Origin: Spirochaetae bacterium HGW-Spirochaetae-5
GTDB taxonomy: Bacteria; Spirochaetota; UBA4802; UBA5550
Length of the DNA stretch: 22,055 nucleotides
Direction: 5' to 3'
Assembly (NCBI GenBank): GCA_002839285.1
Contig: PGXT01000027.1
Span: 22,908 to 44,962 of the forward strand
Shown here: piece after piece, positions 2,818 through 22,055 of the stretch
Numbering within the stretch: position 1 is the stretch's first letter
How the letters are laid out: each line of letters opens with the position of its first letter
Position numbers and translations under genes: made by a program
Notes under the pieces: model-generated
What the model was told of the DNA's origin: nothing
Seen by the model: the letters and a program-made list of their open reading frames with translations, nothing else
The model's database searches: none

Positions 2818-2872
2818 GCATAATAACAATTTATACGGAGATATATTGTTATGCGGGAATGATATGCAGAAA

Positions 2873-3367: not shown

Positions 3368-3390
3368 CCCCGCCGCCGAAGGCGGCGTGG
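3368..3390. repeat. GC-rich palindromic hairpin ccCCGCCGCCgaaGGCGGCGtgg (7 bp perfect stem, GAA/UUC triloop) in the AT-rich divergent promoter region; shares core GCCGAAGGCG with the element at 21981-22007
   Basis: Seen in sequence. The 17 bp perfect DNA palindrome CGCCGCC-GAA-GGCGGCG is flanked by runs of A/T. It is upstream of both flanking genes, so it is not positioned as a terminator for any annotated gene. Confidence 0.4.
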
Positions 3391-3534
3391 ATATATAATC
3401 TTCAATTTTTTAATAATAATTCCTGAACATATTTTTCAGCGAAAATATATCAGCCGCACCAAAGCAGCAGCTGATAAAATGCCGCATGTTTAATAGCAAT
3501 TGCAAAAAATAAAATCAGTTAAACATGAATTACC

Positions 3535-3563
3535 TTGACTGATAAATAATTGTATGTTAACAA
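3535..3563 (+). promoter_or_regulatory. Putative promoter of the NfeD-flotillin operon: TTGACT (3535-3540), 17 nt spacer, extended -10 TGtTAACAA (3555-3563)
   Basis: The -35 is 5/6 to consensus and the -10 is weak but preceded by TG. It is about 40 nt upstream of the RBS CAGGAG. The -10 region is overlapped by the palindromes AATAATTGT-N6-ACAATTATT (3545-3568) and TGTTAACA (3555-3562). Confidence 0.3.
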
Positions 3564-3600
3564 TTATTAATTAACCAGATTCAATCAGGAGATAAAAAAT

Positions 3601-4206: not shown

Positions 4207-4225
4207 AATTAAACGGAGGTTTTTT

Positions 4226-5773
4226 ATGCTTGGTGTCAGCATCGCACTGATAGCTGTAATTTTCATCGCAATATTTCTTTTTCTTATACTATTCTGGGCT
4301 TCCCGCTACAAGCGCTGTCCCTCGGACAAGATTCTTGTAATTTACGGACGAGTCGGTAAAGGACAGTCAGCTAAATGTATCCATGGCGGCGGAGCTTTCA
4401 TCTGGCCGCTGATTCAGGGTTACGCATACATGTCTCTTACCCCTATTACCATAGGTATACCGCTGCAGAATGCTCTTTCTCTTCAGAATATCCGTATCAA
4501 TGTTCCGAGTACATTTACTGTTGGAATAAGCACCGACTCGGCAATAATGAACAATGCCGCTGTGAGGCTTCTTGGTCTTAATATTGAAAGAATCGAAGAG
4601 ATGTCACGGGAAATTATTTTCGGTCAACTGAGGCTTACCGTAGCCTCACTTACAATTGAGCAGATTAACCAGGACAGAGAGAGCTTTCTGGAATCTATCC
4701 GTAAAAATGTTGAGCCTGAGTTGAATAAAATCGGACTCTATCTTATCAATGTAAATATTACAGATATTACTGATGAATCAACATATATCGAAAGTATCGG
4801 TAAAAAATCAGCATCAGAAGCAATTAACCGTGCTAAAGTGGATGTTGCAGAACAGGAAAAAATCGGTGCGATTGGCCAGGCACATGCCAACCGGGATAAA
4901 GATGTAAGCGTTGCCGAAACCGAAGCTGAAGCTGCCAAAGGAAGAAAGAAAGCAGAAGCCGAGCAGAGAATCTTCGTTCAGCAGCAGGAGACAAGTGCTG
5001 CCATTGGAGAGGCTGAAGCAAACAGGGAGATGTCAATCAGGATTGCAGAGACCGAAGCAGATGCGGCAAAGGGTAGAAAAAAAGCTGAAGCCGAACAGCG
5101 GATATTTGTTCAGGTCCAGGAAGCTCTGGCAGTACAGGGAGAGAACAGCTCCAAAGCATCAATCGCCGAAACCAACTCTGAACTGCAGGTAAGACAAGCC
5201 CGCGCTATGCAGATAAGTGAAATCGCAAGGAAAGAGGCTGAAGCTGAAATCCAAAAGGCTCAGTACCACGCCGAACTTGAAAGACTTACAGCCGAAGAAG
5301 TTGTAAAGCAGGAGATTTCAAAAAGGAAGATGGAAATTGATGCTGAAGCTAATGCAGAGAGAGTACGTCGTGAAGCCAAGGGTGCTGCTGATGCGGTAAT
5401 GATGAAATATGAAGCAGAAGCAAAGGGTATCCTTCAGGTTCTTGAAGCAAAAGCTAAAGGTTACGAATACCTGCTGAAAAGCTGCAATGGTGATGCAGAA
5501 GCAGCAACAAGCCTGTTAATGATAGAAAAACTTCAGGAGATTGTAAAACTTCAGGTTGAAGCTATAAAGAATATTAAAATTGATAAAGTTACCGTATGGG
5601 ATTCCGGTGAAAAGAACTCTACCGCAAATTTTCTTTCAGGTCTTATTAAAAGTCTGCCTCCCCTTCAGGAAGTTGCAAAAATGGCAGGTGTTCAGCTGCC
5701 CGGTTATTTAGGTGAACTGATTGAAGATAAAATAATTGATGCGGAGCAGGATACCAGTCACGGGAAAAAATAA
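4226..5773 (+). CDS. floT: Flotillin-family protein (SPFH/band-7 domain plus long Glu/Ala-rich coiled coil); FloT/YuaG-like
   Basis: 515 aa with RBS ACGGAGGttttttATG. N-terminal TM helix, SPFH domain, then EA-rich coiled coil with two near-identical 29-aa repeats (AETEAEAAKGRKKAEAEQRIFVQ.QE). Operon partner of NfeD, as with B. subtilis yuaF-floT. Confidence 0.9.
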   Translation: MLGVSIALIAVIFIAIFLFLILFWASRYKRCPSDKILVIYGRVGKGQSAKCIHGGGAFIWPLIQGYAYMSLTPITIGIPLQNALSLQNIRINVPSTFTVGISTDSAIMNNAAVRLLGLNIERIEEMSREIIFGQLRLTVASLTIEQINQDRESFLESIRKNVEPELNKIGLYLINVNITDITDESTYIESIGKKSASEAINRAKVDVAEQEKIGAIGQAHANRDKDVSVAETEAEAAKGRKKAEAEQRIFVQQQETSAAIGEAEANREMSIRIAETEADAAKGRKKAEAEQRIFVQVQEALAVQGENSSKASIAETNSELQVRQARAMQISEIARKEAEAEIQKAQYHAELERLTAEEVVKQEISKRKMEIDAEANAERVRREAKGAADAVMMKYEAEAKGILQVLEAKAKGYEYLLKSCNGDAEAATSLLMIEKLQEIVKLQVEAIKNIKIDKVTVWDSGEKNSTANFLSGLIKSLPPLQEVAKMAGVQLPGYLGELIEDKIIDAEQDTSHGKK

Positions 5774-5804
5774 TACCATCGGCAGATAAACAGGTTAGTT
5801 ATTA

Positions 5805-6806
5805 ATGAAAATAAAAAAAAGCGCGATACTAATTATTAAACTTATGGTTTTAATTCTGGCACTTGCCGCTCTTTACATGGGCTTTATGTCATGGCAGTAT
5901 AATTCATTCAGGAAAAATGCAGAGAGTATCGAAGCCCTATGGAAATTCGATCCCGACCTGAGCTACAACCTTGACGGAGGTGAGCCTCTCTTTCTTGTCA
6001 AACCGCAAAATAAAATTTCCATGGTATTCATGGAGGGTTTCCGGACACAGAACCCCGCAGGGATGTATATGGACTGGTTCAGAGAACTTCATTCAATACA
6101 TAAAATAAATATTGTTGTACCGGTGTATGGACTGCAGAGCTCGCCATTCCAGCTCCGTTACAGAGAATGGTATCCGCAGGAGGATCTGCGTACAGTACTC
6201 CAGGTTTATAATGCCTATACCTCCATGCTGCCGAAGGACCACCGGGTGATTACAGTATCCCAGTCTTTCGGTACTTATCCCCATGCTGGAATTCTTGCAC
6301 GCGCATCACGCAGGCCCGATTCAGCGGTATTCCTCTCGCCGCTGAACACCGCCATGGAGTATCGTGCTGCAGGTGATTTTGTATTCTGGCTGTCGAAGCA
6401 GATGAACTGGATCCAGCACATAGTAGCATTTACTAAACCGGCACCGTCTCCGAACCGTGTTTCGGTCTGGGATATTGTTAATCCGGAAAAAAATAAAAAG
6501 ATGGCAGAGCGCTTCCCGATCAATCCCGAAGACAAGGCCCATCACGGAGTGCAGGTGCAGGAGACAGCGGAGCTAATGGAAAGCAGACTCCTCCCGCAGA
6601 TTAAAAGAACCGTTGTACTTGTAGTTAACGGCGACAGCGACTTGTACTTCTCTCAAAATGGTTTTGCCCGGACCGCAGAGCTGCTGAAAAATAACGGCAA
6701 CTCTGTTAAGCATGTTGTGCTTAAAAACTCCGGCCACATGGTACTTGCAGACAATGGAGAGGATCAGCTTAAAGCGATGATTCTTAATATTCTTAAAAAC
6801 AGGTGA
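5805..6806 (+). CDS. Membrane-anchored alpha/beta-hydrolase fold protein
   Basis: 333 aa. N-terminal TM anchor. Nucleophile elbow VSQSFG (Sm-x-Ser-x-Sm), acid NGDSD, His in NSGHMVL. It starts 31 nt after the flotillin stop on the same strand. Confidence 0.7.
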   Translation: MKIKKSAILIIKLMVLILALAALYMGFMSWQYNSFRKNAESIEALWKFDPDLSYNLDGGEPLFLVKPQNKISMVFMEGFRTQNPAGMYMDWFRELHSIHKINIVVPVYGLQSSPFQLRYREWYPQEDLRTVLQVYNAYTSMLPKDHRVITVSQSFGTYPHAGILARASRRPDSAVFLSPLNTAMEYRAAGDFVFWLSKQMNWIQHIVAFTKPAPSPNRVSVWDIVNPEKNKKMAERFPINPEDKAHHGVQVQETAELMESRLLPQIKRTVVLVVNGDSDLYFSQNGFARTAELLKNNGNSVKHVVLKNSGHMVLADNGEDQLKAMILNILKNR

Positions 6807-6816
6807 TTTAAAAAAA

Positions 6817-7722
6817 TCAGTGCATGAAAAGCAGTGACACACTCCCCACGGCAATAAAGGCCCCTGCAATTTCAGCATAGGATATACGTTTTTTTAACAG
6901 TATAATCGATGGCGCAATAATGAGAACCGGTGTAAGGGATGATATAGTCGCAACAATCCCGGCCTCTGCGTGCTGTAAAGCGTACAGAAGCGCACCGACT
7001 CCGATGAAGGGACCGAAAACTGAACCCGCTGCTATAAGAGAAAACGATTGAAAATCCTTCAGTGCATCCATAACTTCCCCGGTTTTTCTGAAAAATACCA
7101 CTATCAAAACAAAACCGGCAAATGCCGCAAAAATCCTTATCTGAGTGGCGGCTATAGCTGAAATATCAGCGGCACCCACCTTGGTCAGCAAAGTCCCTCC
7201 GGCCATTGCTACAGCCGATAATATACCGAAAACTACTCCTTTAATATAATCACTACCCCCCGACTCCGGATTTACCGCGGAATTCCTGTTTCCCGAAACA
7301 ACAGTAATTCCTATGCCGAGAACAGTTCCGGTAATGCCAAGCACACCCCAATAACCGATTGTCTCACCGAATATAAAGTATGAAGCAACCGCGGTCATGG
7401 GGACAGAAGCAGCCATGAGAAGCATTGCAATTCTTGATCCCACCATGAGATAGGAATTAAAAAGAAAAAAATCTCCGATGATGAATCCCACAACTCCCGA
7501 GGCGCTCATGAAAATCCATGATTTAAGCGGAATACCCGATGGAATTATCTGATCACTGAAAAAATACGCAAGAATTGAGAGATACACCGTGCCGAACAGC
7601 ACCTTGAGAGTATTCACTGCCGTTACACCGGCCCTGCTGCTTGCAGATTCAAAAATCATTGCAGCGGCTGTCCATGAAACAGCAGTGATCAGAGCCGCAG
7701 CCTCCCCCATTTTCACTATCAC
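6817..7722 (-). CDS. DMT superfamily (EamA-like) transporter, about 10 TM helices
   Basis: Two EamA-like halves. The ORF is open up to the ATG at 7737, but that ATG would have only a 6-7 nt leader with no SD. The GTG at 7722 is preceded by a perfect AGGAG (7734-7730) at 7 nt spacing, so I favour 7722. Taking 7737 adds five residues, MRSSK. Confidence 0.8.
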   Translation of the reverse strand: MIVKMGEAAALITAVSWTAAAMIFESASSRAGVTAVNTLKVLFGTVYLSILAYFFSDQIIPSGIPLKSWIFMSASGVVGFIIGDFFLFNSYLMVGSRIAMLLMAASVPMTAVASYFIFGETIGYWGVLGITGTVLGIGITVVSGNRNSAVNPESGGSDYIKGVVFGILSAVAMAGGTLLTKVGAADISAIAATQIRIFAAFAGFVLIVVFFRKTGEVMDALKDFQSFSLIAAGSVFGPFIGVGALLYALQHAEAGIVATISSLTPVLIIAPSIILLKKRISYAEIAGAFIAVGSVSLLFMH

Positions 7723-7750
7723 TTTAGAACTCCTCATCGGTTTTACAGTA

Positions 7751-7778
7751 ATTATAAAATCTGATATGACGACAGCAA
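7751..7778 (-). promoter_or_regulatory. Putative promoter of the DMT transporter gene (minus strand): TTGCTG (7778-7773), 16 nt spacer, TATAAT (7756-7751)
   Basis: Read from the reverse complement: ttgctg-tcgtcatatcagattt-tataat, a consensus -10. The predicted TSS is near 7744. Confidence 0.45.
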
Positions 7779-8085
7779 TTTACCGGAAATTTAGTGATAA
7801 GGATTCAGGAACCATGCAGAATGCAACTATTTTAAAAAGTCAGAATAGGATAAAATTAAAATCTGCCGGAACAGACTCCATAAAACAGCTCTGCAAATCA
7901 CATAAAAGATAGCAAAATCCGTTTTTTTCTTGTATAAAAATTAAGTTATTCTTTATTAGGAATCAGCGTATTTAATCGATTATCACCTGTTTAAAATTCA
8001 GCCGTTTTGAAATGATAATTGAATACTTACAATGCCAGTGATAGTGCAATTGTACCCATTCCAAACAAAAAAAGGAGTTACTTTA

Positions 8086-8858
8086 TGGTTCAACAAATAA
8101 TTGAAGATAATATCATGATTGCCAAATTCGACAATCCCCCTGCCTACTCCATGACTTTTGATTGTCTTAATGTCATTAGAGATGCAGTGAAAAAAGTCAA
8201 TGAAGATGATTCTCTCAAGGGACTTATCTTTACAGGCGAAGGGAAATTTTTCTGCTCAGGTTTCGACCTCCCGACATTTATAAGTTTCAAGACAAGGGAG
8301 GATGTTCTCGGTTTTTTCAACGTTGAAGAAGAGATGCTATATGAAATATTTACATGTAAAAAACCTGTAATTGCGGCTATCAACGGTCACTGTACTGCAG
8401 GGGGATTTATTGTGGCAATGGGTTGTGATTACAGAATTGCCACTGATAACCCTAAAGCAAAAATGGGAATGACTGAAACTAAAATCGGTCTCTCACTTAC
8501 AATTGCTGAAATGGAACTTGTAAGATCGGGACTTAACAACGATAAACTTGTACGTGACATCATGTATGACGGCGAAAGACACAGTTTTGAGCAGGGGAAA
8601 GAGATGGGTTTTGTTGACCAGATCGTTCCTGAAGCTGAACTTATGGACGCAGCGAAAAAAAGAATAACATACTGGTGGGATCAGCCGGGTCATGCCTTTA
8701 CAAACCTGAAATACTGTTTAAGATACCCTATAGCATCACAGATGAGATACAGACTCGACAATGAGAACTGGCAGGACAGTCTCTGCGAAGCAATAACAAA
8801 TCCGCAGCTGAAAGCAATTTTTGAAATGGTTCAAAAAGCAATGTCCGGCGGGAAATAA
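8086..8858 (+). CDS. Enoyl-CoA hydratase/isomerase (crotonase) family protein
   Basis: Oxyanion-hole motifs FCSGFDL and AAINGHCTAGGFIVAMGCDYRIA. Strong RBS aaaAGGAGttactttATG at 8086. The in-frame extension back to 8019 lacks an RBS and is probably not translated. Confidence 0.85.
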
Positions 8859-8866
8859 AAGGATAA

Positions 8867-8942
8867 CCCCGTATGGGCAGTAGGGGCAAAAGATTTTTTG
8901 CCCCTACTGCCATCCCGATGTCCCTCTTTTCGGGGCATGGGG
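8867..8942 (+). other. Compact GC-rich structured element: 16 bp hairpin GGCAGTAGGGGCAAAA/TTTTGCCCCTACTGCC (8876-8911) plus a second 7 bp hairpin with a G-U pair (8918-8938), bracketed by CCCC (8867-8870)/GGGG (8939-8942)
   Basis: Seen in sequence, 9 nt after the enoyl-CoA hydratase stop. No U-tract follows on either strand, so it is not a canonical intrinsic terminator. The G-U wobble favours folding as a + strand RNA. Confidence 0.35.
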
Positions 8943-9161
8943 GCTCCTAAAAAAAGCTTGACGATTACGCCTTTTAAACTTCTTCTTTAATACTTAAAGT
9001 AATTAAAAATTATAAAAATTTAGTGGATCCGGCGATTTTAAAACCGTACCATTAACATACAGCAGCAATTCCTGAACTTATTTATAAAGGAATCAGCATT
9101 GTTTGAATATAATTTTATACTAAAAATGCTCTGCATTTAACTGAAAATAAGGATCAATAAT

Positions 9162-9626
9162 ATGAAAACAATCGAAGGAAAACTTGACGCAACGGGACTT
9201 AAGTTCGGCATAGTCGTATCCCGTTTTAACGAATTTATCACCAGCAGACTTCTTGGCGGTGCTGTTGACTGTCTTAAAAGAAATAACGCAAATGATGACG
9301 ACATCACTGTTATGTGGGTTCCCGGAGCCTTTGAAATACCCGCGGCAGCCACACGCATGGTTCAGTCAAAAAAATATGACGCCATAATCTGTCTTGGAAC
9401 AGTTATAAGGGGTGCCACACCGCACTTTGATTATGTATCCGCAGAAGTTACAAAGGGTGTGGGACAGCTCAGCCTTAAAGCGGAGGTTCCTGTAATATTC
9501 GGAGTACTTACAACAGATTCAATTGAGCAGGCTGTGGAGAGAGCCGGTACCAAATCTGGGAATAAAGGATTTGATGCTGCAATGTCTGCAATAGAAATGT
9601 CTAACCTTTTTAAACAGATTAACTAA
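9162..9626 (+). CDS. ribH: 6,7-dimethyl-8-ribityllumazine synthase
   Basis: 154 aa. [12 protein letters not shown]...[11 protein letters not shown]...[17 protein letters not shown] are hallmark RibH motifs. RBS AAGGAtcaataatATG. Followed by nusB with a TAATG overlap, the conserved ribH-nusB pair. Confidence 0.95.
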
Positions 9627-10039
9627 TGGGACAGAGACACAAAGCAAGAGAACATGCGCTTCAGGGACTCTATATGTACGAAGTCTCCAAGTCGACTGTT
9701 GACAATATTATAGAATTTGAATGGCTCGATGGTGAAATAGCCGAAGATGAAGAAAAATTCGCGGTACAGCTTATACAGGGTGTAATAAAAGAGATCGAAA
9801 GAATCGATACTATAATAACAGATTACTCAAAAAACTGGAAGTTTGAAAGAATAGCCATCATCGACAAGTCTATTCTAAGGCTTGCCATATACGAAATGCT
9901 TTTCATAAAGGATATACCCGCTATTGTAACAATCAACGAGTGTATCGATCTGGGCAAAACTTTCGGAGGGGAAAACTCCGGTCAGTTTATAAACGGGATT
10001 CTTGACGCTGTAAAGAAACAGGAACTCAGGGAGGGTTGA
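9626..10039 (+). CDS. nusB: Transcription antitermination factor NusB
   Basis: 137 aa. N-terminal RHKAREHALQGLY and the conserved NusB fold signature. Its start overlaps the ribH stop by 1 nt (translational coupling). Confidence 0.9.
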   Translation: MGQRHKAREHALQGLYMYEVSKSTVDNIIEFEWLDGEIAEDEEKFAVQLIQGVIKEIERIDTIITDYSKNWKFERIAIIDKSILRLAIYEMLFIKDIPAIVTINECIDLGKTFGGENSGQFINGILDAVKKQELREG

Positions 10040-12099
10040 TAAACCTTGTGAAGATTGGAAGAAGCCGTAAGGACAGCTCCGAATTCGATATTCATATCGA
10101 AAAAAACAGAATCAACGAAATTGAAACTGTTCAGATCGAGACCGGCAGAAAAGAGCCGATGTCATCAAAACAGAAGTACACTATTCTCATACTCGGATTG
10201 GCATCGGTATCTCTTATTTCAGCTCTTCTTATTATCAACTTTTTCTATAACAGATCCGGCAAATTCACTGCCGGTGAAAACAATCTGACAACCGGAAGCG
10301 ATGTAATGCAGGGGAAGGAACTGCTTACTCCATTTCAGACAGAGAATCCCCAGCTTAAAAAAGCCATAGCCAGCTACAACAGCGGATACATACCAAATGC
10401 AATCACAGAATTCACCGATGTTGTAGAGTCCACCGCAGTTCCTAAAGACAAAGCAATTGCCCTTATTTATCTTGGGATTATTGCAGACCGCAAAGGTGAG
10501 TACGACAATGCTATAAACTATTTTAAACGTGCTGAAAACTACGACGAATACAATCCCGAAATATACCTCAACATGGCACGGACTTACAGAAAAAAGAGAG
10601 ATTACAACAACGCGGTAAAGTATGCAGAAAAATCATCGGAACTTATTCCTGATGATGTTAATCCTCTGATTCTTCTGGGGAATATTAACTATGAACTTAC
10701 TAACTGGGATGAAGCGATAAGATACTACGAGAAAGCCCTGAAGATTGACAGCAATAATCCATCCCTTCTCTACAACATGGCTCTGGCGCTTTTCAAAAAG
10801 GGGGAAAGATTCCCCGCACTTGAATTTCTGAAAAAGGCTGCCGAATCTGATAAAATCGGAGATGTGGCGTACAACTCCTACTCGCGTCTTGGAGCTGAAT
10901 TTCTTGAGAGCAATATGTTCGACCTGGCGGAAAAATATCTTGTACAGGCCACCAGACTCAGACCGCAGGACCCCGTGGGGCGATACAATCTAGCCGTCGC
11001 TTATTTAAGACAGAATAAAAATGCCGAAGCCCTGAAAGAACTGGAGGAATCTGAACGGTTAAGCCAGGGGGATATGATGCTCCTTGAAAACATCGGAGAA
11101 TCGTACTTCGCCCTGAAGGATTACGACCGGAGCCTGAGGTCATACGGCAAAGTGATGGAGACCTCCAGCAGAAATGTAAAAATACTCTCCCGTATAGGCG
11201 AGATCTATTACGCCAAGGGTGATCTTGAAAGAGCATATGAATCTTACAGAAAGGTCACACAAATTCAGCCGGCCACGGAAAACGCGCGCATTGCATATCT
11301 GAACATGGGCAACATTCTTGATGACGCGCAGAGGTTTGAAGATTCGATCAGAGCATACGAATCGGCCATTGCAATCAGAGACAACGATGACCTTGCGTAC
11401 TACAATCTTGGAATTGCCTACAAACATTACGATAAGCCTGCCATGGCTATAAACTCATGGAGAAAGGCAATACAGATCAATCCAGGGAACATTAAAGCGC
11501 GGCTTGCCATGGCGGATTATTATTACGAGCAGGGGTACAACGATCAGGCCGAGAAGGAGTATCAGGAGATAATCTACAAATGGCCAGACAATCAGGAAGC
11601 CCTTTTTAAACTGGGAACGATTTACCATAAACATAAAAATTACAAGGACGCACAGAAGGCATATTCAAGGGTTGTGGAAGCAGGTGAATCTACCGAGCTT
11701 TCAAGAAAAGCAATGATCAATCAGGCGATAGTCTCATCGGGAGAGCGCGGCGATGAGGATAGCCTGAACAATTCAATTAAAATGATACAGAAAGCTCTGC
11801 TTCTTAAACCGGACGATTCCGATGCTCTGCTTGCTCTTGGAATTATTTACGCGCGGAAAGAGATGCACAGCAAAGCGGTTGAGGCATTCTATCAGTCTAT
11901 AAAGTCATCAAGGGACAACAAAATGACGGCTGAAGCATATAACAATATGGGGAAGAGTTATTACCAGATGAAAGAGTATAAAAAATCCGTGCAGGCATTT
12001 ACCCGCGGTGTTGAAGAGGATTCGTCCAATGAAGAGATACGCATAAACAGAAAAACTGCCGTACAGGCATATGAAGAGCAGCTGGAAAGAGAGAGATGA
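10036..12099 (+). CDS. Tetratricopeptide-repeat protein with a single N-terminal TM helix
   Basis: More than 12 TPR units with the repeated pattern A..Y..A/G...Y..A...Y..AL..P. TM helix YTILILGLASVSLISALLIINFF. The start is uncertain. TTG at 10036 overlaps the nusB stop but is only 1 nt from the SD; the alternatives are GTG at 10048 or ATG at 10159. The stop overlaps the dgt start (ATGA). Confidence 0.8.
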   Translation: MINLVKIGRSRKDSSEFDIHIEKNRINEIETVQIETGRKEPMSSKQKYTILILGLASVSLISALLIINFFYNRSGKFTAGENNLTTGSDVMQGKELLTPFQTENPQLKKAIASYNSGYIPNAITEFTDVVESTAVPKDKAIALIYLGIIADRKGEYDNAINYFKRAENYDEYNPEIYLNMARTYRKKRDYNNAVKYAEKSSELIPDDVNPLILLGNINYELTNWDEAIRYYEKALKIDSNNPSLLYNMALALFKKGERFPALEFLKKAAESDKIGDVAYNSYSRLGAEFLESNMFDLAEKYLVQATRLRPQDPVGRYNLAVAYLRQNKNAEALKELEESERLSQGDMMLLENIGESYFALKDYDRSLRSYGKVMETSSRNVKILSRIGEIYYAKGDLERAYESYRKVTQIQPATENARIAYLNMGNILDDAQRFEDSIRAYESAIAIRDNDDLAYYNLGIAYKHYDKPAMAINSWRKAIQINPGNIKARLAMADYYYEQGYNDQAEKEYQEIIYKWPDNQEALFKLGTIYHKHKNYKDAQKAYSRVVEAGESTELSRKAMINQAIVSSGERGDEDSLNNSIKMIQKALLLKPDDSDALLALGIIYARKEMHSKAVEAFYQSIKSSRDNKMTAEAYNNMGKSYYQMKEYKKSVQAFTRGVEEDSSNEEIRINRKTAVQAYEEQLERER

Positions 12100-13250
12100 T
12101 AAACGCAGACAGAGCATTCCTCCAGAATCTTGAAGAGACAAGCCTTGCATCATACGCGGCCAGGTCATCAGAAACAAAGGGGAGAGATCACGCTGAATCG
12201 AGTCACGCCTACCGCACGGAATACCAGCGCGACAGAGAGAGGATAATACATTCACGCGCGTTCAGAAGACTTGAATACAAAACCCAGGTTTTTATAAATC
12301 ACGAAGGTGACCACTACAGAACACGGCTTACCCATACAATAGAGGTGGCACAAATCTCAAGAGCAGTCTCCCGGGCTCTCAGACTTAACGAGGATTTAGC
12401 AGAAAGTATTGCTCTTGCCCATGACCTTGGACATACGCCATTCGGCCATGTGGGGGAGAAGGAACTTAACAGGCTTCTGAAAGATCACGGCGGTTTTGAG
12501 CACAACAGGCAGAGTCTCCGTGTTGTTGAAGTTCTTGAAAAAAGATACAGCAGTTTCCCGGGACTTAATCTCACATGGGAAACCCGCGAAGGTATTATAA
12601 AACACTCCAGCCCATACGACAGACCGGAAACTTCCGATTTTCTCCCGGGTGAAAATGCATCGCTTGAGGCTCAGATCATTGATCTTGCCGATGAAATTGC
12701 CTACAATAACCACGACCTTGATGACGGCATAACATCGGGCCTTCTCGATTATGACGGTGTAATAAAGCTTGAAATATGGGAACTTGCAAAAGAATTATAC
12801 GGCAGACCTCTCCCGGATTCAAAAAAATCAGCAGCACGGGAGATTATCAGAACAATTATAAATCTTCTGGTTACTGATCTTATAAATTCAACAGTCAAAA
12901 ACATCAATGATAACAATATTCATTCATATCAGGATGTTAAACAATCACCCGTTAAGCTTGCAGGTTTTTCAAATGACATCAGCAAAGCTAATAACGAACT
13001 GAAGAAATTCCTTAGAAAAAATATGTACCAGCATTACAGAGTTACAAGGATGTCGCTTAAATCACAAAAAGTAATAAATGAACTCTTCAACATCTACACA
13101 GAGCATCCCGACACCCTCCCGGAGAGATACGCCGAAGAGATTGAACAGCATGGTCTGATACGGACTGTAACAGACTTCATCGCCGGAATGACAGACCGCT
13201 TTGCCCTTGAAGAGTATAAAAAATTAACCGACCCATTTATCAGAGTTTAG
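12096..13250 (+). CDS. dgt: dGTP triphosphohydrolase-like HD-domain protein (short-form dGTPase)
   Basis: 384 aa. HSRAFRRLEYKTQVF, RLTHTIEVAQISR, HDLGHTPFGHVGE and DLADEIAY are the canonical dGTPase/HD motifs. ATGA overlap with the upstream TPR gene. Confidence 0.9.
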   Translation: MINADRAFLQNLEETSLASYAARSSETKGRDHAESSHAYRTEYQRDRERIIHSRAFRRLEYKTQVFINHEGDHYRTRLTHTIEVAQISRAVSRALRLNEDLAESIALAHDLGHTPFGHVGEKELNRLLKDHGGFEHNRQSLRVVEVLEKRYSSFPGLNLTWETREGIIKHSSPYDRPETSDFLPGENASLEAQIIDLADEIAYNNHDLDDGITSGLLDYDGVIKLEIWELAKELYGRPLPDSKKSAAREIIRTIINLLVTDLINSTVKNINDNNIHSYQDVKQSPVKLAGFSNDISKANNELKKFLRKNMYQHYRVTRMSLKSQKVINELFNIYTEHPDTLPERYAEEIEQHGLIRTVTDFIAGMTDRFALEEYKKLTDPFIRV

Positions 13251-13258
13251 GAGAAAAT

Positions 13259-13765
13259 ATGGAGATTCAATTTCCTGAAATACCCGATTACATCAAAGAA
13301 CTGATCGCTTCCGGAAGCGGAATTGATGAGATATTGATAGACAAAGAAGGGGTATGGTACCACAACGGCGAAAAATTCACCAATGAAAAGATACTGAATT
13401 TTTTCGGAAGATCAGTCAACATAACAGCCGATGGAGAATATGTTATTCATTACGGTGAATACACTTATCCTATAAAAGTAGAAGATACTCCGTATTTTAT
13501 AACAGGCGTAACATTCAGCGGTTTCGGAAATTTCGAAACAGTTCTCCTCAACCTCTCATCGGGAGAGACTGAAGAACTGAACTGCAATACCCTCTACTGT
13601 AAAAAAAACAATGCGCTCTACTGCAGAATTAAAAACGGAACAATGCCGGCTAAATTTAAAAGATCACCCTCTTTCAATATTCTTGAAAGACTTGAAGAGG
13701 GGAGCGACGGGAAGTTCCATTTAAAATTATGCGGACAGATAATTGATCTTATAATTAAGGACTAA
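13259..13765 (+). CDS. Conserved hypothetical protein, probably DUF1285 family
   Basis: 168 aa with RBS TTAGGAGaaaatATG. The pattern IDKEGVWYHNGEKF...ILNFF...DGEYVIHYGEYTYPIKVEDTPYF resembles the I.RDG.W.H.G..I...L..LF...L...GEY.L.TP.E...I.VED.PF signature as I recall it for DUF1285. Four Cys lie in the C-terminal half. Confidence 0.55.
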   Translation: MEIQFPEIPDYIKELIASGSGIDEILIDKEGVWYHNGEKFTNEKILNFFGRSVNITADGEYVIHYGEYTYPIKVEDTPYFITGVTFSGFGNFETVLLNLSSGETEELNCNTLYCKKNNALYCRIKNGTMPAKFKRSPSFNILERLEEGSDGKFHLKLCGQIIDLIIKD

Positions 13766-13768
13766 ACA

Positions 13769-14995
13769 GTGAAAAAATATATTAATTCCATGCTTCTTCT
13801 TTCTATTGCCGGAGTCGTAGTATCCGGAGTTCTGCTTTATCAGCATTATTTCCCTGATTTCGAAATGGGGTTCATCACATGCGGTAAGGGATTTTCAAAT
13901 CCATGCATAACCGTCGGACAGTCAAAATATTCAACACTTTTCGGTCTTCCGGTTGCGGCATACGGCCTGTTTTATTTTATTTTATTATCTTTTTTAATAC
14001 TTGTAGCTGATTACGCTCAGGATAAGTTTTATAAAATTTTATGCGGAATTATATTTCCACTGATTATTGTCGGGCTTTTTTCAGATGTGGTTCTGGGAAT
14101 TTTAATGATAAAAATCGGTGAAATATGCGGGCTGTGTATTTTCACTTATGTTCTGAATATTTTACTATTTGTTATTATGATTTTGTTTATAAAGAATAAT
14201 TTCAGCAGAAAAGAGATTATAGATTCAGTTCTTAATTTTTTTAAACCTGCCAATTCAGATGAGAAGGCATCACTCTCTCTTTCCATACTGTTCTCTTTTT
14301 TTCTCGCATTTGCTGTATTTACCAGCACAAATATAATCAAGATGAAATCGGGAGTAAACAAAACTCCGGAAGCTCAGAAGGCAAAGCATTTAACAACTTT
14401 CTACAATCAGCAGCCTGAGCAGATTGATTATATTAAAAGCAATATGGCCATGGGGAATGACAACGCAAAAGTCAAAATCTATATTTTCAATGACTTTCTC
14501 TGCTCTGCCTGTTATAAACTCTATCAGATTGAAAAATCTATTTTTGCAAAATATAAAAACAGCATACAGATAATCTACTACCACTACCCTCTTGATTCGG
14601 CCTGTAATAAATACATGGATGATTCGGTATACATGAACTCGTGCATGGCATCTCAATCAATGTATGCGGCTGCAGAGGCCGGTTTTTTTGAAGAGTACTT
14701 CTATGTGCATTTTTCAGATTATGCCAGCTACAAAGATTCATTTGAAAAGGATAATGTTACAAAAAACATCAGTGATACTGAAAAACAGTTTAAAATCAAA
14801 CCCGATTCAAAACAGAAATTTGTATCTATAATGGAAAACAACAGCGGTGATTTACAAATAAAAGAGCATATTGAATTTGCAGAAAAACTTAAAATTGAAG
14901 CAACACCGACAATTATCATTGCCGGGAGAAAAATAGTAGGTGTGCCGCCGAAGGAGATTCTTGAAAGTATTATCGATACTGAACTTTCAAAATAA
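13769..14995 (+). CDS. Vitamin K epoxide reductase (VKOR) domain fused to a periplasmic thioredoxin/DsbA-like domain (bacterial DsbB-analogue)
   Basis: GTG start 3 nt after the DUF1285 stop. Five TM helices, a loop Cys pair (CGKGFSNPC) and an in-membrane CGLC active site. The C-terminal domain has the CSAC thioredoxin motif (FNDFLCSACYKL). Confidence 0.8.
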   Translation: MKKYINSMLLLSIAGVVVSGVLLYQHYFPDFEMGFITCGKGFSNPCITVGQSKYSTLFGLPVAAYGLFYFILLSFLILVADYAQDKFYKILCGIIFPLIIVGLFSDVVLGILMIKIGEICGLCIFTYVLNILLFVIMILFIKNNFSRKEIIDSVLNFFKPANSDEKASLSLSILFSFFLAFAVFTSTNIIKMKSGVNKTPEAQKAKHLTTFYNQQPEQIDYIKSNMAMGNDNAKVKIYIFNDFLCSACYKLYQIEKSIFAKYKNSIQIIYYHYPLDSACNKYMDDSVYMNSCMASQSMYAAAEAGFFEEYFYVHFSDYASYKDSFEKDNVTKNISDTEKQFKIKPDSKQKFVSIMENNSGDLQIKEHIEFAEKLKIEATPTIIIAGRKIVGVPPKEILESIIDTELSK

Positions 14996-14998
14996 TAC

Positions 14999-16871
14999 CT
15001 AAAGCATATCAACAGGATCTATATCTATTTCAACATATACAGCCTTTGATTTAAAAGAATCAAGGGCTGTTTTAATTAGAGCAGTAAGATCCTTCAGTTT
15101 ACTGCTTTTCAAAATTATATGATACCGGTAGTTCCCCCCGATTTTAGTGAGAGGAGCAGGTGACGGTCCCAGAATCATTATCTTCGGGAACTTCTCCGAT
15201 CCGGTCTTCTTAAGAATTTCAGCCAGAGTATCTGCCGATTCACAGACTGTGTCCTCATCTTTGCCGCGGATTACAATCCGTGCCAGCCTTGTGAAAGGGG
15301 GATAATTGATCATCTTCCGTATCTTCAACTCTTCCCTATAAAATCCGGAATAGTCCTGTCTTTTCAGATAATCAAAAATTATATGCTCCTCATTCAGTGT
15401 TTGAATTATAACACGCCCTTCACTCCCCCCTCGCCCCGATCTTCCAGACAGCTGCATGAGAAGTGAAAATATTTTTTCCGTCGCCCTGAAGTCGGGCATA
15501 TTGAGCCCGATGTCCGCCATTATTATTCCGGCAACGGTTACGCCGTGAAAATCGAATCCCTTTGAAATCATCTGAGTCCCTAAAAGAATATCGATCTCCC
15601 TTTTATGCATCTGTTCAAGAAGATCGAATACTGCATCCTTTTTCCTGGCACTATCCTGATCGAGCCGGAAGACTCTGTAATCGGGAAACTCCTTTGTAAT
15701 TGTCTCTTCAATTTTCTGTGTACCGGAACCGAGCTTAAGTATAGATTCAGATCCGCATTTGGAACACTTAACAGGGACATCCGCTGAATACCCGCAGTAG
15801 TGGCAGAGCATCCCCTTCCCCCTGTGATAATTCATTCCAATACTGCAATCGGGGCATTCGGCGGCAGTACCGCAGTCTCCGCATAAAACAAACGGTGCAA
15901 AACCTCTACGGTTCAGAAGATATACAGCCTGATTACCCTCTTTTACGGCTCTGTTTGTAAAAAGCTTCAATCTTGGAGTTATCTCTTCGCTGCTGTTTTT
16001 TAATTTCACAATTTCAATCAGGGGGAGCTTACCCTCACCGTATCTTTCGCTCAGGGTATGAAGCTCAATAACACCCCGTTCCGCGGCATAGAGAGTTTCA
16101 ATTGAGGGAGTAGCGGAACCGAGTATAACCTTTGCATTCTCTGTCTCGCTCCTGTGAAAAGCAATTCTTCTTGCATTATATCTTGGTGTACTCTGCCATT
16201 GCCTCACCTTTGTAGAATTTCTTCCAGTTAGCCAGTCGCTGATTCTGCGTGAGGTGACTATGGTAGACAATAAGATTATCTCCAAAGACTTTATATAATC
16301 TTTCATAAATCTGAGATGAAAGTGTAATTTCCGGGACAAGATAAATTACAGAGAGTCCTTTTGAAACAGCATCAATTGCCGCGCTCATATATACTTCGGT
16401 CTTGCCGCTGCCGGTTATTCCAAAAATAAGATGAGTTTTTTTTTCTGAAGAGAGTATTTTTTCGTATATCTCTTTCTGCTGCCCGGTTAAAATTATCCCG
16501 CTGTCCTGAATCTGCCTTACCCGTGAATTACGGGGCCTGGACTTTGAGCTCTCACCGGCCGGAAGGGCTTTCCCCAGAGCTTCACCCACGGAGGAGAGAT
16601 AAGATTCCGAAACATACTCTGCAAGTCTGATAATCCGTTCATCATAAATCGGCTCATCGTCAATGCGCGACTCAATATCTTTAAGCTCTATCCCTTCGGG
16701 CATATTACTATGAACCGAAGATACATACCCGGTCATCTTCCGCCCTGCGAAATTCACAACAACCCTCATTCCGGCAACAAGAATCATACCATCCGGAATT
16801 TTGTATGTAAACGATCTTGTGACGGGTGAATTAATAAATATATCAGCAACGGAAGGTTTAGTGGGGGTCAT
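14999..16871 (-). pseudogene. priA: Primosomal protein N' (PriA), disrupted: two overlapping out-of-frame ORFs (16871..16176 and 16339..14999) with helicase motif II (DExH) missing
   Basis: The N-terminal fragment has the PriA N-terminus, Walker A GITGSGKTEVY and ...IVYHSHLTQNQRLANWKKFYKGEA, then stops (MAEYTKI*). Homology resumes in another frame near 16198 with WQSTPRYNARRIAFHRSE...ILGSATPSIETLY, the Cys4-Cys4 zinc-binding region (CGDCG..CPDC..CHYCG..CSKCG) and the C-terminal domain. The approximately 30 residues that in E. coli PriA read [32 protein letters not shown] are absent. Confidence 0.8.
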
Positions 16872-17529
16872 TATGAAGTTCCAGATATTTCATCTTTACC
16901 AGTTTCAATGTCTCCCAGGCTGGACGTTTAAGCTCGGGATTTTTTATCAGTGATATTGTATGCTCTGTATTAAACCATGTTATACCTTTACTGGAATTTA
17001 CAACGCTCTGAATAGGGAGGATTTCACCCATAACAATAACCAGACGGGGTTTTATAAGATCAACCTCCCTCTGAAGAATTTTTGTACAGTTCTTAACCAT
17101 GTCGCTCGGTTTAAATAATGCGTTGCCCGTTTCGCATTTAATCAGGTTTGTAACATAACACTCTTTCATCTCAAGACCGATTGCCGAAACCATTTTTTTA
17201 AGAAGTTCAACTGACTCAGCTCTGTGGATACTCATTTCAATCCGGTTGGCCATTCGCGGTGCATTAAGTATAATCATCACTCCATTGGCTCCTGAGCCGA
17301 ATGGATTTTTTCTTTCAATAATATCCGGGCAGGCTTTACATTCAGATATTTTAAAGTCAGCGGTAATATCCTGAATGATTGAAATTTTCGCCGTTTCGGT
17401 CTTCGGTTTAAGTAATTCAATAAGATAATTTAATTCATCTTCCCCCTTATACAGAAGGGTGTTCTTCATCACTCTCCGGTCCTTAAGCAGATTGATTAAA
17501 GATTCAGCTGTTTTATAATTTTTCAACAT
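16858..17529 (-). CDS. Uracil-DNA glycosylase superfamily protein, family 4/5-like with Fe-S cysteines and a divergent motif A
   Basis: Aligns to Thermus UDGA. CKACPD matches [35 protein letters not shown] matches [38 protein letters not shown] matches HPAYLLRNP. The GEGPG motif is replaced by LNAPRM. An alternative start at ATG 17469 (MKNTL...) has a better RBS (ccGGAGagtgATG). Confidence 0.7.
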   Translation of the reverse strand: [223 protein letters not shown]

Positions 17530-18874
17530 TGATATTGTACTGTTTTATTTTTCTGTGGAGATTAGTTCTCTCTATATCGAGTTCCCGTGCCGTCACGGAA
17601 ACATTACCTTCATTCTTTTTAAGCGCAGCGATTATATAATCTTTTTCAAAAGCCTCTCTTGTCTCCTTCAAAGATCCGCCGGCATAATTAACCTCACGGG
17701 TATGATCTTTCCCGCCTGAACCGATATTTTTCTGAATATCTTCAGCTTTGATCTCTTCAGTGGAGACCATTATCACCACTCTTTCAATAATATTTTTCAA
17801 CTCCCTTACATTACCCGGCCATGGATATTCTTTTAAAAACTCCATCCCGTCTTCAGTGATAACCTTTTTTCCGGTTCCATGTTCCTGGGAAAACCGTTCA
17901 ATAAAATAATTTATAAGAACTTCTATATCATCCTTTCTTTCAGTCAACCGGGGGACATGAATAGGGATAACATTAAGTCTGTAATAAAGATCCTCCCTGA
18001 ACTTCCCCTCGGCAATCGCCTTGGGAATATCAACATTTGTTGCCGCAATAACCCTAACATCTACAGTAATTGTTTCACTCCCCCCGACCCTTTCAAACTG
18101 CTGTTCCTGAAGCACACGGAGAACTTTCGCCTGGGCTGACAAGCTCATATCACAGACTTCATCAAGAAAGAGAGTCCCGCCGTCGGCAAGCTCAAACTTT
18201 CCAAGTCTTCTCCCTACTGCACCGGTAAAGGAACCTCTTTCATGTCCGAATAATTCACTCTCAATAAGTTCATCAGGTATAGCTGCACAGTTCATCTTCA
18301 GAAACGGCTTATCCGATCTGTTTGAGAGCTGGAATATTGCCTTAGCGACCAGTTCTTTTCCTGTACCGCTCTCGCCTGTGATAAGAACTCTTGCATTTGT
18401 CTTCGCGGCTCTTCTTATAATATCTTTAATTTCATTAACATGATTTGAATATCCGATCATGTCATCATCAACAAATGATTTCTTTTTTAGCTTAATATTT
18501 TCACGGCGAAGCCTCACCTGCTCCAGGGCATTGTTTACAGATGTTACAAGCCTGTCAAGGGATGGGGGTTTCTCCAGAAAATCAAATGCCCCGATCCTTG
18601 TAGACCGGACAGCTATATCAATAGAACCATGTCCGCTGATCATTATCGCGGCGGATTCCGGATACATTTTTTTTATCTTTTCAAGCAGCTCAATTCCGTC
18701 AGCATCGGGGAGCCATACATCAAGTATGATAAGATCAACTTCATTTTTTTTCAGAAATGATAAAGCCTCTTCACCATTCTTTCCCGAAAATACAACATGA
18801 CCTTCATCCTGAAGTATCGGTGTCATGGAATTTATTATATTTTCTTCATCATCTACAATTAATATTCTTGCCAT
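17513..18874 (-). CDS. Sigma-54-dependent Fis-family response regulator (NtrC/NtrX-like): REC, AAA+ and HTH domains
   Basis: 453 aa. Receiver domain with the phospho-acceptor Asp in LIILDVWLPDADG. Walker A GESGTGKE, Walker B LFLDEV, sigma-54 contact ESELFGHERGSFTGA, and a C-terminal Fis-type HTH. Its start overlaps the kinase stop by 1 nt (TAATG). Confidence 0.9.
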   Translation of the reverse strand: MARILIVDDEENIINSMTPILQDEGHVVFSGKNGEEALSFLKKNEVDLIILDVWLPDADGIELLEKIKKMYPESAAIMISGHGSIDIAVRSTRIGAFDFLEKPPSLDRLVTSVNNALEQVRLRRENIKLKKKSFVDDDMIGYSNHVNEIKDIIRRAAKTNARVLITGESGTGKELVAKAIFQLSNRSDKPFLKMNCAAIPDELIESELFGHERGSFTGAVGRRLGKFELADGGTLFLDEVCDMSLSAQAKVLRVLQEQQFERVGGSETITVDVRVIAATNVDIPKAIAEGKFREDLYYRLNVIPIHVPRLTERKDDIEVLINYFIERFSQEHGTGKKVITEDGMEFLKEYPWPGNVRELKNIIERVVIMVSTEEIKAEDIQKNIGSGGKDHTREVNYAGGSLKETREAFEKDYIIAALKKNEGNVSVTARELDIERTNLHRKIKQYNINVEKL

Positions 18875-20646
18875 TAAACAACTCCTATTTGCGCCGGGAA
18901 CATAAATGTAAATTCAGCGCCCTGTCCCTCTTTAGACCGGCAGTAAATTTTTCCGTCATGCTCCAGTATAATTTTTTCAACAATAGCAAGCCCCAGGCCT
19001 GTTCCGGTTTTCTTCAAAGTAAAACCGGGTTCAAAAATTTTATCAATATCATCCGCTTTTATACCGGGCCCGTTATCCTTAACAGTCACCACCTGATAGC
19101 AATCTGAATCATCTATCCCGGTTGTAATAATAATAATCCCGTTTTCATGGAATGCCTGTATTGCATTACTGATAATATTGTTTAAAGCCTGCCTGACCAG
19201 ACTTCTGTCAATCAGAATATCCGGAAGATTCTCTTCTCTGTTGAAAATGAATTCAACATTATCATAACTGTTAAAAAGCAGAATACTCTCATCAATTAGA
19301 GTATTAAGATTTGACAATTCTGCTTTTTTAACGGGGAGTCGGGCGAAGTTATTAAACTCACTTACAAGCTTCAGTAATGAATTCACTTCAGTAATAATAG
19401 TTTCCGATCCTGTAATTACAGCACTCTGCATATTCGGATTACCCTCTTTAACCAGTTTCCTCATCCTCTCGGCAGAAAGTCTGATAGGAGTAAGAGGGTT
19501 TTTAATTTCATGGACAAGCTTCCTTGCCATTTCATTCCAGGCTTCGAGTTTCTGTTTCTGAAACATGAACTTCTGGTTTTCATCCAGCTGCTTTGCCATG
19601 GAGTTAAAAGCATCAACAAGCACACCAATCTCATCGTCGCTTCTTTTTTCAATATGCATCTTATTATTACCCATGGCGATCTGCTTTGAAGCAGATGAAA
19701 GCTCAAGAACAGGACGTACAATATTTCCGGAGATGTATATACTTATCAGATATGCTATGCCGACGATTACAATAGATATGAGCATCAAAAATGATCCGGT
19801 ACCTGTTTCAAAATACTCCTTCTGACTTTCGATCCGCCTGTAATCATCTCTCGCCTGAAGAAAAAGTTCTTCATTGACTTTTATCTCATCAGAAAGAGGG
19901 AGGTAAACAACAACCATCAGATCCCGGTACCTGAACATCCCGCTGACTATATCATGACTGTCAATTTTGATCCGGTCCACTCTGATACCGGGTAATCCGG
20001 AAGCACTATAAAATCTATATAACTTATAATTATCAACGTGGGCTGATGTTTGAGCATTCCCTGTAATCTGAAGAGCGCCATTAACGGCCTTGAAAAATAT
20101 AATTTTTAATTCAGAATTTCTGTATGTAGCTGTAATTCTTTCTAAATCGTTCTGGTCTGTCTTCAGCATAAAATTATCGAAAAGAAATCTTGCGGTTTTA
20201 AGCTCCGAAGTTACCTCTTTCTCAATCCGGTAATAAGCATCATGAGTAAGATCAACCGATTTTTCCAGAGCACTCATGGTTCTTCCGCTGAACATTTTTG
20301 AAAGACTTTTGTTAAAATAGTTGCTCGATATAATTACAATGGGCATGGCGGAGAGCACGGCAATAAAGACGAATGAAAGTGTTATTTTTTTCTTAATACT
20401 TTCCGGAATATCTGCTGTATTAATATTCAGACTTCTCCGGAAAGACATAACAATAAAATATATTCCCGCTATAATCGGAATAGTCATCATTGTTGTTATA
20501 AAAAAGTTTTCATCCACGAGACCGGCATTTAAACGGCCCGGGAACAGACCGATAATAAGAATAGATGAGAATATAATTATACCGACAAGAAATAGAATGT
20601 CCTGTACTGAATTTTTACTCTTTATTTTTTTTTTGTCTGAGGACAA
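18874..20646 (-). CDS. Sensor histidine kinase (4 TM, HAMP, HisKA, HATPase_c; NtrY/AtoS-like architecture)
   Basis: 590 aa. TTG start with RBS AGGAAG 5 nt upstream. Three N-terminal TM helices, a domain of about 170 aa, a fourth TM helix, then a HAMP domain. H-box HEIKNPLTPIRLSAERM, N-box ALNNIISNAIQAF, G1 VKDNGPGI, G2 GTGLGLAIV. Confidence 0.9.
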   Translation of the reverse strand: MSSDKKKIKSKNSVQDILFLVGIIIFSSILIIGLFPGRLNAGLVDENFFITTMMTIPIIAGIYFIVMSFRRSLNINTADIPESIKKKITLSFVFIAVLSAMPIVIISSNYFNKSLSKMFSGRTMSALEKSVDLTHDAYYRIEKEVTSELKTARFLFDNFMLKTDQNDLERITATYRNSELKIIFFKAVNGALQITGNAQTSAHVDNYKLYRFYSASGLPGIRVDRIKIDSHDIVSGMFRYRDLMVVVYLPLSDEIKVNEELFLQARDDYRRIESQKEYFETGTGSFLMLISIVIVGIAYLISIYISGNIVRPVLELSSASKQIAMGNNKMHIEKRSDDEIGVLVDAFNSMAKQLDENQKFMFQKQKLEAWNEMARKLVHEIKNPLTPIRLSAERMRKLVKEGNPNMQSAVITGSETIITEVNSLLKLVSEFNNFARLPVKKAELSNLNTLIDESILLFNSYDNVEFIFNREENLPDILIDRSLVRQALNNIISNAIQAFHENGIIIITTGIDDSDCYQVVTVKDNGPGIKADDIDKIFEPGFTLKKTGTGLGLAIVEKIILEHDGKIYCRSKEGQGAEFTFMFPAQIGVV

Positions 20647-20675
20647 AATTACTTCCTGGAGAGATTATATTTTAT

Positions 20676-20939
20676 TCAGACTTTAAAATCATTTTCAATC
20701 AGATTGAGGATGTAACTGACAAGTTCATGTTCACCCTCTCCGCTTGCTCTTATCTTCAGTTTTGATCCTGAAATTATTGCAAGACCAAGAACGGACATTA
20801 TTGATTTACCGTCGGCTTCTATATCATCTTTAATCAGCGTAATTTCACATTGATACTTCATTGCCTCACGTACAATCATCATGGCAGGTCTGGCATGAAT
20901 ACCCGCATCACTATTTACAACAACATCTCTTTCAACCAT
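20676..20939 (-). CDS. ptsH: Phosphocarrier protein HPr
   Basis: 87 aa. His15 motif GIHARPA, and the Ser46 region GKSIMSVLGL (the HprK target). TAATG overlap with hprK. Confidence 0.9.
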   Translation of the reverse strand: MVERDVVVNSDAGIHARPAMMIVREAMKYQCEITLIKDDIEADGKSIMSVLGLAIISGSKLKIRASGEGEHELVSYILNLIENDFKV

Positions 20940-21883
20940 TACTTCCCACCTTCATTGATAATCCATTTTTTAATCCGTTCATCCAGTTCTCTGGCCGAAT
21001 TAATTCCTACTTTCTTCAGTCTCTGATTTAATGCTGCTGTTTCAATAATTATCGGAATATTTCTTCCCGGACGTACCGGCACTGTAATATATGGAACATC
21101 TATATCCAATATTGTATATTTCTTCTCATCAAGACCGAGTCTGTCATATTCAGTGGATGAATCCCACTCTTCAAGGAGTATAACCATCTCTATACGTTTC
21201 CTGTTTCTGACAGATCTTATACCGAAAATTTCACGGACATTTACAATCCCTATTCCCCGGATTTCAATATGGTGTTTTAATATCTCTGAGCCCCCCCCCA
21301 TAAGAAGTGACTCATCTATTTTCTTGACAACAACCATATCGTCACCAACCAGCCTGTGACCCCTCTCTATGAGCTCCAGAGCAGTCTCGCTCTTGCCAAC
21401 CCCGCTTTTACCGGTTAGAAGAACACCGACTCCAAAGACATCCACCAGAGTTGCATGTAGAGTTACGCTCTCGGCAAAAATTTCATCAATAACGTGAACA
21501 AAAAGCGTTATAAATCTTGTAGTACTTCTTTTTGAAAGAAAAATAGGAATATTTCTCTTTTCGGCATATTCAAGAAAAAGATCATCGGGCCTGTATTCAT
21601 AGGTAAATATACAGCATAAAACCGGATAACTGAAAAAATCATCATACACCTTAATCTTCTGTTCCGGACTGAGCTGATTCATGAAAGCCGTTTCACCCTG
21701 ACCGAAAATCTGAATCCTGTCATAGGCGAAATAATCAAAAAAACCCGCAAGAGCAAGCCCGGGTCTGTTCAGCTCACCCGTTTTAATCTCCTTATCGAGA
21801 CCGCCTTCACCTGCGAGTAAACGGAGCTGAAGATCAATCCGCCCTATCCCATCAATAAAATATCTTAATGTAAGTTTTCCCAT
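20939..21883 (-). CDS. hprK: HPr kinase/phosphorylase
   Basis: 314 aa. Collinear with B. subtilis HprK: GVGVLLTGKSGVGKSETALELIERGHRLVGDD (P-loop), EIRGIGIVNV, and PVRPGRNIPIIIETAALNQRLK. Confidence 0.95.
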   Translation of the reverse strand: MGKLTLRYFIDGIGRIDLQLRLLAGEGGLDKEIKTGELNRPGLALAGFFDYFAYDRIQIFGQGETAFMNQLSPEQKIKVYDDFFSYPVLCCIFTYEYRPDDLFLEYAEKRNIPIFLSKRSTTRFITLFVHVIDEIFAESVTLHATLVDVFGVGVLLTGKSGVGKSETALELIERGHRLVGDDMVVVKKIDESLLMGGGSEILKHHIEIRGIGIVNVREIFGIRSVRNRKRIEMVILLEEWDSSTEYDRLGLDEKKYTILDIDVPYITVPVRPGRNIPIIIETAALNQRLKKVGINSARELDERIKKWIINEGGK

Positions 21884-21955
21884 GGTAGATTTATCTCACT
21901 ATATCATTTTCTTTCCAGCAAAAAAATATAAAACAGAATAAAAAAAGAGAAACTG

Positions 21956-22029
21956 CTCAAAAACCAGCGGTAAAATTGTTCTCCGCCGAGCCGAAGGCGC
22001 GGCGGAGATAAAAACCACCAGTTTTTGAG
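21956..22029. repeat. Nested palindromic element upstream of hprK: 27 nt hairpin CTCCGCCG-aGCCgaaGGCg-CGGCGGAG (21981-22007) inside a 9 bp inverted repeat CTCAAAAAC (21956-21964)/GTTTTTGAG (22021-22029); direct repeat AAAACCA on both sides
   Basis: Seen in sequence. The inner hairpin shares the 10-mer GCCGAAGGCG and a GAA triloop with the hairpin at 3368-3390. It lies 73 nt upstream of the hprK start and is cut close by the window edge. Confidence 0.4.
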
Positions 22030-22055
22030 TAGATAAAAAATTTATTTGTCTTGCG

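Follow-up and report, generated by a model that had tools for sequence, protein, structure and literature searches.

The split priA gene of the HGW-Spirochaetae-5 genome is probably a local assembly artefact

In the stretch of DNA analysed here (the window, 22,055 nt), priA is broken into two reading frames, and the DEEH that forms the Walker B motif of the helicase is encoded in neither. Has this spirochaete lost an intact PriA, or does the break belong to the deposited assembly rather than to the organism? A sequence-only reading of the locus had offered genuine pseudogenisation, a lineage-specific two-piece PriA and an assembly error as possible explanations. The features of the broken gene, all on the minus strand, are the following.

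16871..16176, minus strand: N-terminal priA fragment, 231 aa, deposited as PKL18273.1 ('hypothetical protein CVV49_06725')
16421..16392, minus strand: Walker A / helicase motif I, GITGSGKTEV, intact and within the N fragment
16306..14999, minus strand: deposited C-fragment CDS, PKL18272.1 ('primosomal protein N''), 435 aa
16195/16196, minus strand: deletion junction, ATGG joined to CAGAG, with 92 nt absent relative to an otherwise identical contig
16195..14999, minus strand: C-terminal PriA-homologous part, 398 codons plus stop, in a frame that differs from that of the N fragment
16120..16103, minus strand: helicase motif III, GSATPS, in the C part
15883..15749, minus strand: Cys-rich zinc region with eight Cys, in the C part, inside helicase lobe 2

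The N fragment comprises the 3' DNA-binding domain (3'BD) and the beginning of helicase lobe 1 (Pfam PF17764, residues 11-104, E = 4.6e-24; PF00270, residues 131-221), and its 3'BD aligns with the PriA structures 4NL4 and 6DGD. Its sequence runs to KKFYKGEA and is followed by MAEYTKI and a stop, the last six residues (AEYTKI) being out-of-frame; the ORF thus ends seven codons past GEA, exactly as the sequence-only reading had described. PriA homology starts again in the other frame at a glutamine (16195), reading QSTPRYNARRIAF...GSATPS, close to the position of about 16198 given earlier. Besides motif III and the zinc region, the C part holds helicase lobe 2 (Helicase_C) and the C-terminal domain, with matches to PF18319 and PF18074. 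The first 37 residues of the deposited C-fragment CDS (MKDYIK...VRQW) are not PriA sequence; they come from reading the N-fragment coding region out of frame. No Shine-Dalgarno-like sequence was found upstream of either C-fragment start, ATG 16306 or TTG 16339.

The extent of the loss was measured on the TIGR00595 profile, a check that the sequence-only reading had called for. Match states 1-77 are taken up by the N fragment and states 110-509 by the C fragment, which leaves 32 states (78-109) missing between them; the scores are 81.5 bits for the N fragment and 418 bits for the C fragment, at a family cut-off of 230. In an alignment with E. coli PriA (8fak_H), the N fragment stops at residue 298 and the C fragment begins at residue 330. 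The missing piece corresponds to V226-E256 and includes DEEH, in agreement with the earlier estimate of about 30 residues. The earlier statement that no frame nearby encodes DEEH also held up, as a six-frame search across the priA span returned no DExH. The sole DEEH string of the window (17470..17459) falls within the neighbouring uracil-DNA glycosylase (UDG) gene, in a frame full of stops, and a search for a substitute Walker B elsewhere found none. In protein databases, the C fragment clustered with full-length PriA proteins.

Compared with the PriA family (TIGR00595; E. coli and Klebsiella structures 8FAK, 6DCR and 4NL4), the window gene has the same domain order and all motifs besides those lost: 3'BD, Walker A, motif III, the Cys-rich zinc region, helicase lobe 2 and the C-terminal domain are all in place. 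It departs from the family in lying in two frames and in lacking the 32 profile states that include DEEH; the window contains neither a PriA Walker B / motif II (DExH) nor one continuous ORF at the TIGR00595 cut-off.

Comparison with orthologous loci, by DNA alignment for four and by BLAST for eight, defined the lesion at the nucleotide level. Nucleotide identity to the window is ~88% for L002 and L004, ~84% for L003 and L005, and 75-79% for L001, L006, L007 and L009. The window shows one clean gap of exactly 92 nt, the rest being collinear over 13-15 kb. The deletion of about 90 nt, not a multiple of three, that had been read from the sequence alone is therefore real as a difference between sequences. 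The missing bases, TTGCCGTCGG...CCTACAAGGAG, extend from codon positions 2-3 of V226 through codon E256, and the 31 residues that they encode (V226-E256) contain motif Ib (TRSA) as well as the Walker B / motif II DEEH. Codon M225 (plus one G) is consequently fused out of frame to codon Q257. The flanks that meet at the junction are GGTGAGGCAATGG and CAGAGTACACCAAG, where the intact allele reads GGCAATGGTTGCCGTCGG...CTACAAGGAGCAGAGTACACC. The join is clean, without Ns or scrambled sequence, and has 1 nt of microhomology, the G at 16196 being ambiguous. Slippage between direct repeats was considered as an origin and rejected, there being no repeat spaced ~92 nt and none flanking the missing segment; imperfect CTACAA(A)GG copies lie ~100 nt apart at positions that do not match the junction. 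The site itself bears no repeat, hairpin or slippery run.

Exact-match searches with a Band_7 protein and with the UDG of the window identified two further contigs of the same strain. The ENA contig ERZ27239241:k141_71736 (L084; 29.8 kb; MEGAHIT-style) covers window positions 1-16196 and 16196-22055 at 100.000% identity, free of mismatches and of gaps apart from the extra 92 nt, and encodes a single 654-aa priA ORF with IIVDEEHD. This contig, with its ~90 additional nt and one DEEH-containing ORF, tells directly against the split gene of the sequence-only reading. Over the 12.4 kb compared, SRR3546454_5080, a Logan contig of 18.9 kb, also shows 100% identity to the window, and its gene table has a 654-aa priA product; the exact 654-aa protein is recorded on two contigs. 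SRR3546454 very probably belongs to the same Horonobe project as the MAG reads, whose nine data sets gave the HGW MAGs, judging from the adjacency of its accession to SRR3546456-57, the runs that are documented as Horonobe runs of PRJNA321556 (PMC8324899). Set against the PriA family, the intact 654-aa allele is an ordinary full member. The proteins flanking priA occur in NCBI, Logan and ENA, and the 231-aa and 435-aa split products in NCBI only. Likewise, an index of 153 billion gene positions contained none of the split products, searched as the 231-aa, the 435-aa and the 446-aa (TTG-start) versions. The strain-specific left flank TTCTACAAAGGTGAGGCAATGG gave no exact match in JGI metagenome contigs; the strain is absent from that collection, so the search is uninformative on alleles.

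One-piece DEEH-bearing priA is found in relatives from 100% down to 50% identity, with ORFs of 654-660 aa, and the 120 listed homologues, partial proteins excepted, are single ORFs of ~650-660 aa with DEAD and Helicase_C domains. The dN/dS ratio (omega) of priA is 0.038-0.042 between the intact allele and three relatives, indicating strong purifying selection. Within the 31 missing residues, one position varies in the three relatives despite 8-16 synonymous differences. Relative to the intact allele, the two fragments have 0 substitutions and no further indels, that is, no secondary decay.

The genes that precede priA are intact and have the same lengths as in relatives (five genes). Together with priA, they form a string in the order hprK, ptsH, histidine kinase, NtrC-type regulator, UDG and priA.

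21883..20939, minus strand: hprK (HPr kinase), first gene of the six-gene string
20939..20676, minus strand: ptsH (HPr), second gene of the string
20646..18874, minus strand: HAMP/HisKA histidine kinase, intact
18874..17513, minus strand: sigma-54-dependent (NtrC-type) response regulator, intact
17529..16858, minus strand: family-4-type UDG (PF03167), intact, with a 14-nt overlap with the priA start

Successive overlaps in this string measure 1, 1, 17 and 14 nt, and ptsH and the kinase gene are separated by a 29-nt spacer. The six-gene operon of overlapping genes proposed by the sequence-only reading is thus right as to four junctions and the intact upstream genes, and wrong as to the ptsH-kinase junction. 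The string recurs with the same gene lengths in L001, L002, L003 and L084, which are all the loci whose gene tables were read, and rpoN and hpf lie directly upstream of it in the relatives L002 and L003 and in same-strain L084. A PTS/sigma-54 regulatory cluster is an unusual partner for a repair glycosylase and a restart helicase. On the other side of priA, a 408-aa VKOR plus thioredoxin/DsbA fusion (13769-14995, plus strand) is convergent to it, with the stop codons 3 nt apart, an arrangement kept in all relatives examined. Further away, a 300-nt intergenic region (8859-9161, plus strand) precedes a ribH (9162-9626)-nusB pair; no FMN riboswitch or other Rfam family reached its gathering score anywhere in the window, and tRNA and promoter/terminator scans added nothing relevant.

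The deposited genome itself, Spirochaetae bacterium HGW-Spirochaetae-5, is a MAG of 4.71 Mb in 308 scaffolds from groundwater of the Horonobe underground laboratory. IDBA-UD (k 40-100) assembled it from Illumina HiSeq2000 reads and ra2 curated it automatically, manual curation being limited to a few top bins (PMC5520028 and supplement). The priA fragments and their neighbours (PKL18271.1 to PKL18275.1) are located on one 89,606-nt contig of this MAG. Both split products are found verbatim in GenBank (PKL18272.1, PKL18273.1), so the lesion belongs to the public deposit and was not introduced later; a planted or synthetic edit is thereby ruled out. The laboratory that produced the MAG has described unsupported local errors as especially common in IDBA-UD scaffolds and as a source of incorrect database genes, with 13 local errors in one 1.13-Mb genome (PMC7111523).

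Taken together, these data lead us to favour the reading that the split priA is a local assembly or curation artefact of the deposited MAG scaffold and not a feature of the organism, whose true gene is probably the intact 654-aa priA of the two other same-strain assemblies. An artefact is favoured because other assemblers yield an intact gene on identical sequence, and because IDBA-UD scaffolds are especially prone to errors of this kind (PMC7111523). The junction, in addition, lacks the signature of a biological deletion (1 nt of microhomology, no flanking direct repeat), and scaffold errors are a priori commoner than a majority-allele knockout of a strongly constrained gene in sequence that is otherwise unchanged over 22 kb. 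The confinement of the split products to the NCBI MAG and the strong purifying selection on priA were both counted on the same side. According to this proposal, 92 bases would have dropped out in the IDBA-UD scaffold, automatically curated with ra2, and the resulting out-of-frame M225 (+G)-Q257 fusion would have been annotated as two CDSs, neither with the DEEH Walker B. We infer that the loss arose in silico rather than in cells. The assembly error that the sequence-only reading had listed among its options is hence the one preferred here, on the basis of the intact gene in two other assemblies of the strain.

The window resembles the local assembly errors documented in short-read MAG scaffolds (Chen et al. 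2020, PMC7111523) in its IDBA-UD origin with only automatic ra2 curation, and in carrying a small lesion that breaks one gene, uninterrupted in the identical sequence of other assemblers. As in such cases, the other assemblies (ENA, Logan) are coherent at the site, with flanks 100% identical. Those errors are defined by the lack of any read that perfectly supports the consensus; the likeness of the window to them is one seen between assemblies. On the opposite side, ra2 is meant to flag unsupported joins, so the survival of an unsupported junction requires that both the assembler and ra2 failed.

It is possible, although we consider it less likely, that the MAG instead records a real and very recent 92-bp priA deletion segregating at Horonobe, a minority or one-sample allele that IDBA-UD followed. 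The clean join, with no Ns or scrambled sequence, is what would be expected if reads carry the junction, and de Bruijn assemblers normally need junction-bearing reads and rarely invent junction k-mers. Genotypes with >99.98% ANI to one another recur at Horonobe in samples from several depths and years, and slow in situ growth has been reported there (PMC11657941). The intact contigs may therefore stem from another sample than the MAG, and the broken gene may be a real, sample-specific priA allele. An independent 1-nt frameshift, located 1-3 nt from the same boundary, is seen in the sister species L001 (78% nt identity). If real, the deletion allele would be null for PriA, since its N fragment has the 3'BD and Walker A without Walker B and its C part offers no plausible site for translation to begin; cells with this allele would no longer restart replication through PriA. 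In E. coli, priA null mutants are viable although sick. In a subsurface population that grows very slowly, such a null could thus survive for some time.

The window resembles recent bacterial pseudogenes in that a frameshifting internal deletion has taken the catalytic motif out of a gene that all relatives keep whole, but it differs from them in showing no accumulated decay and no sign of fixation. Moreover, the lesion of an evolved pseudogene should be reproduced in independent data from the same organism, whereas here two other assemblies of the identical strain are intact and none is split. With no divergence at all from the intact allele, the gene cannot be an old or fixed pseudogene, and what survives of the genuine pseudogenisation suggested from the sequence alone is a very recent or minority allele. 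Even such an allele has to be reconciled with 0 substitutions in 22 kb, which leave no sign of time spent as a pseudogene, with the strong purifying selection on priA, and with a junction at which no repeat offers a mechanism and the microhomology is just 1 nt.

The sister-species frameshift raises the related idea that the break marks a place of repeated damage. In L001 (ENA ERZ21878447 ctg45342l, 5247-7218; ~78% nt identity), priA is split into ORFs of 264 aa and 405 aa by a single extra A near 6000-6015 (TATAAAGAAACAGAGC, compared with TACAAAGAGCAGAGT in relatives); this +1 A insertion, at AAAGAAACAG, lies no more than 3 nt from the 3' boundary of the window deletion. The other eleven complete genes of the 13.2-kb L001 locus match relatives in length. 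P0054, the 405-aa C-terminal PriA of this sister species, was examined as a second DEEH-less split and rejected: the cause is the simple 1-nt insertion, and DEEH is kept in the 264-aa upstream ORF. P0124 (430 aa, beginning at M225) was likewise rejected as a break at the same codon, the gene being cut by a contig end. That contig, L085:1-1391 (JGI 3300037043 Ga0377233_005640), comes from a third relative and ends 98 nt upstream of priA M225. Its HD-domain gene is split in the gene calls (3141-3455 and 3923-4294), so this stretch is probably of low quality.

With the window deletion, the L001 insertion and the JGI contig end, three breaks thus fall near one place. That a real 92-bp deletion marks a site of recurrent priA inactivation in a subsurface spirochaete clade nevertheless seems very improbable to us, and so does a hot spot of mutation, or a programmed event, in the priA motif II segment. 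The coincidence was noticed post hoc, with a chance that we roughly estimate at 1-2% for L001 alone. The site has no repeat, hairpin or slippery run, the end of the L085 contig does not count as a lesion, the L001 insertion may be an error of a long-read consensus, and all other relatives are intact. We regard the L001 and L085 breaks near the window lesion as chance plus assembly noise, although the spot may be prone to mutation or to misassembly.

In principle, a PriA lacking helicase activity is conceivable: primosomes are still assembled by the ATPase-dead K230R form of E. coli PriA, and all remaining motifs and domains are intact in both window pieces. A functional, lineage-specific two-piece or helicase-less PriA, made from two separately translated ORFs and loading the replicative helicase without an ATPase of its own, is nonetheless highly implausible: the relatives, including contigs 100% identical on both sides of the lesion, have one ORF with DEEH, which contradicts the lineage-specific split entertained earlier; the C piece opens with 37-48 out-of-frame codons and lacks any SD-like signal for initiation; the frameshift falls midway through helicase lobe 1 rather than at a domain boundary; and 0 substitutions relative to the intact allele leave no room for compensating changes.

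Were recurrent inactivation nevertheless true, it would mean that loss of PriA helicase and restart is tolerated, even transiently favoured, in extremely slow-growing deep-groundwater populations. If the deletion allele exists in cells, it would be a modestly interesting priA null segregating in a slow-growing subsurface population and not a new kind of system. On the favoured reading, that of an assembly artefact, the finding is a point of data quality: GenBank holds two bogus CDSs (PKL18273.1 and PKL18272.1) for what is almost certainly one ordinary 654-aa PriA, and inferring from this MAG that PriA-dependent restart has been lost in the lineage would mislead.
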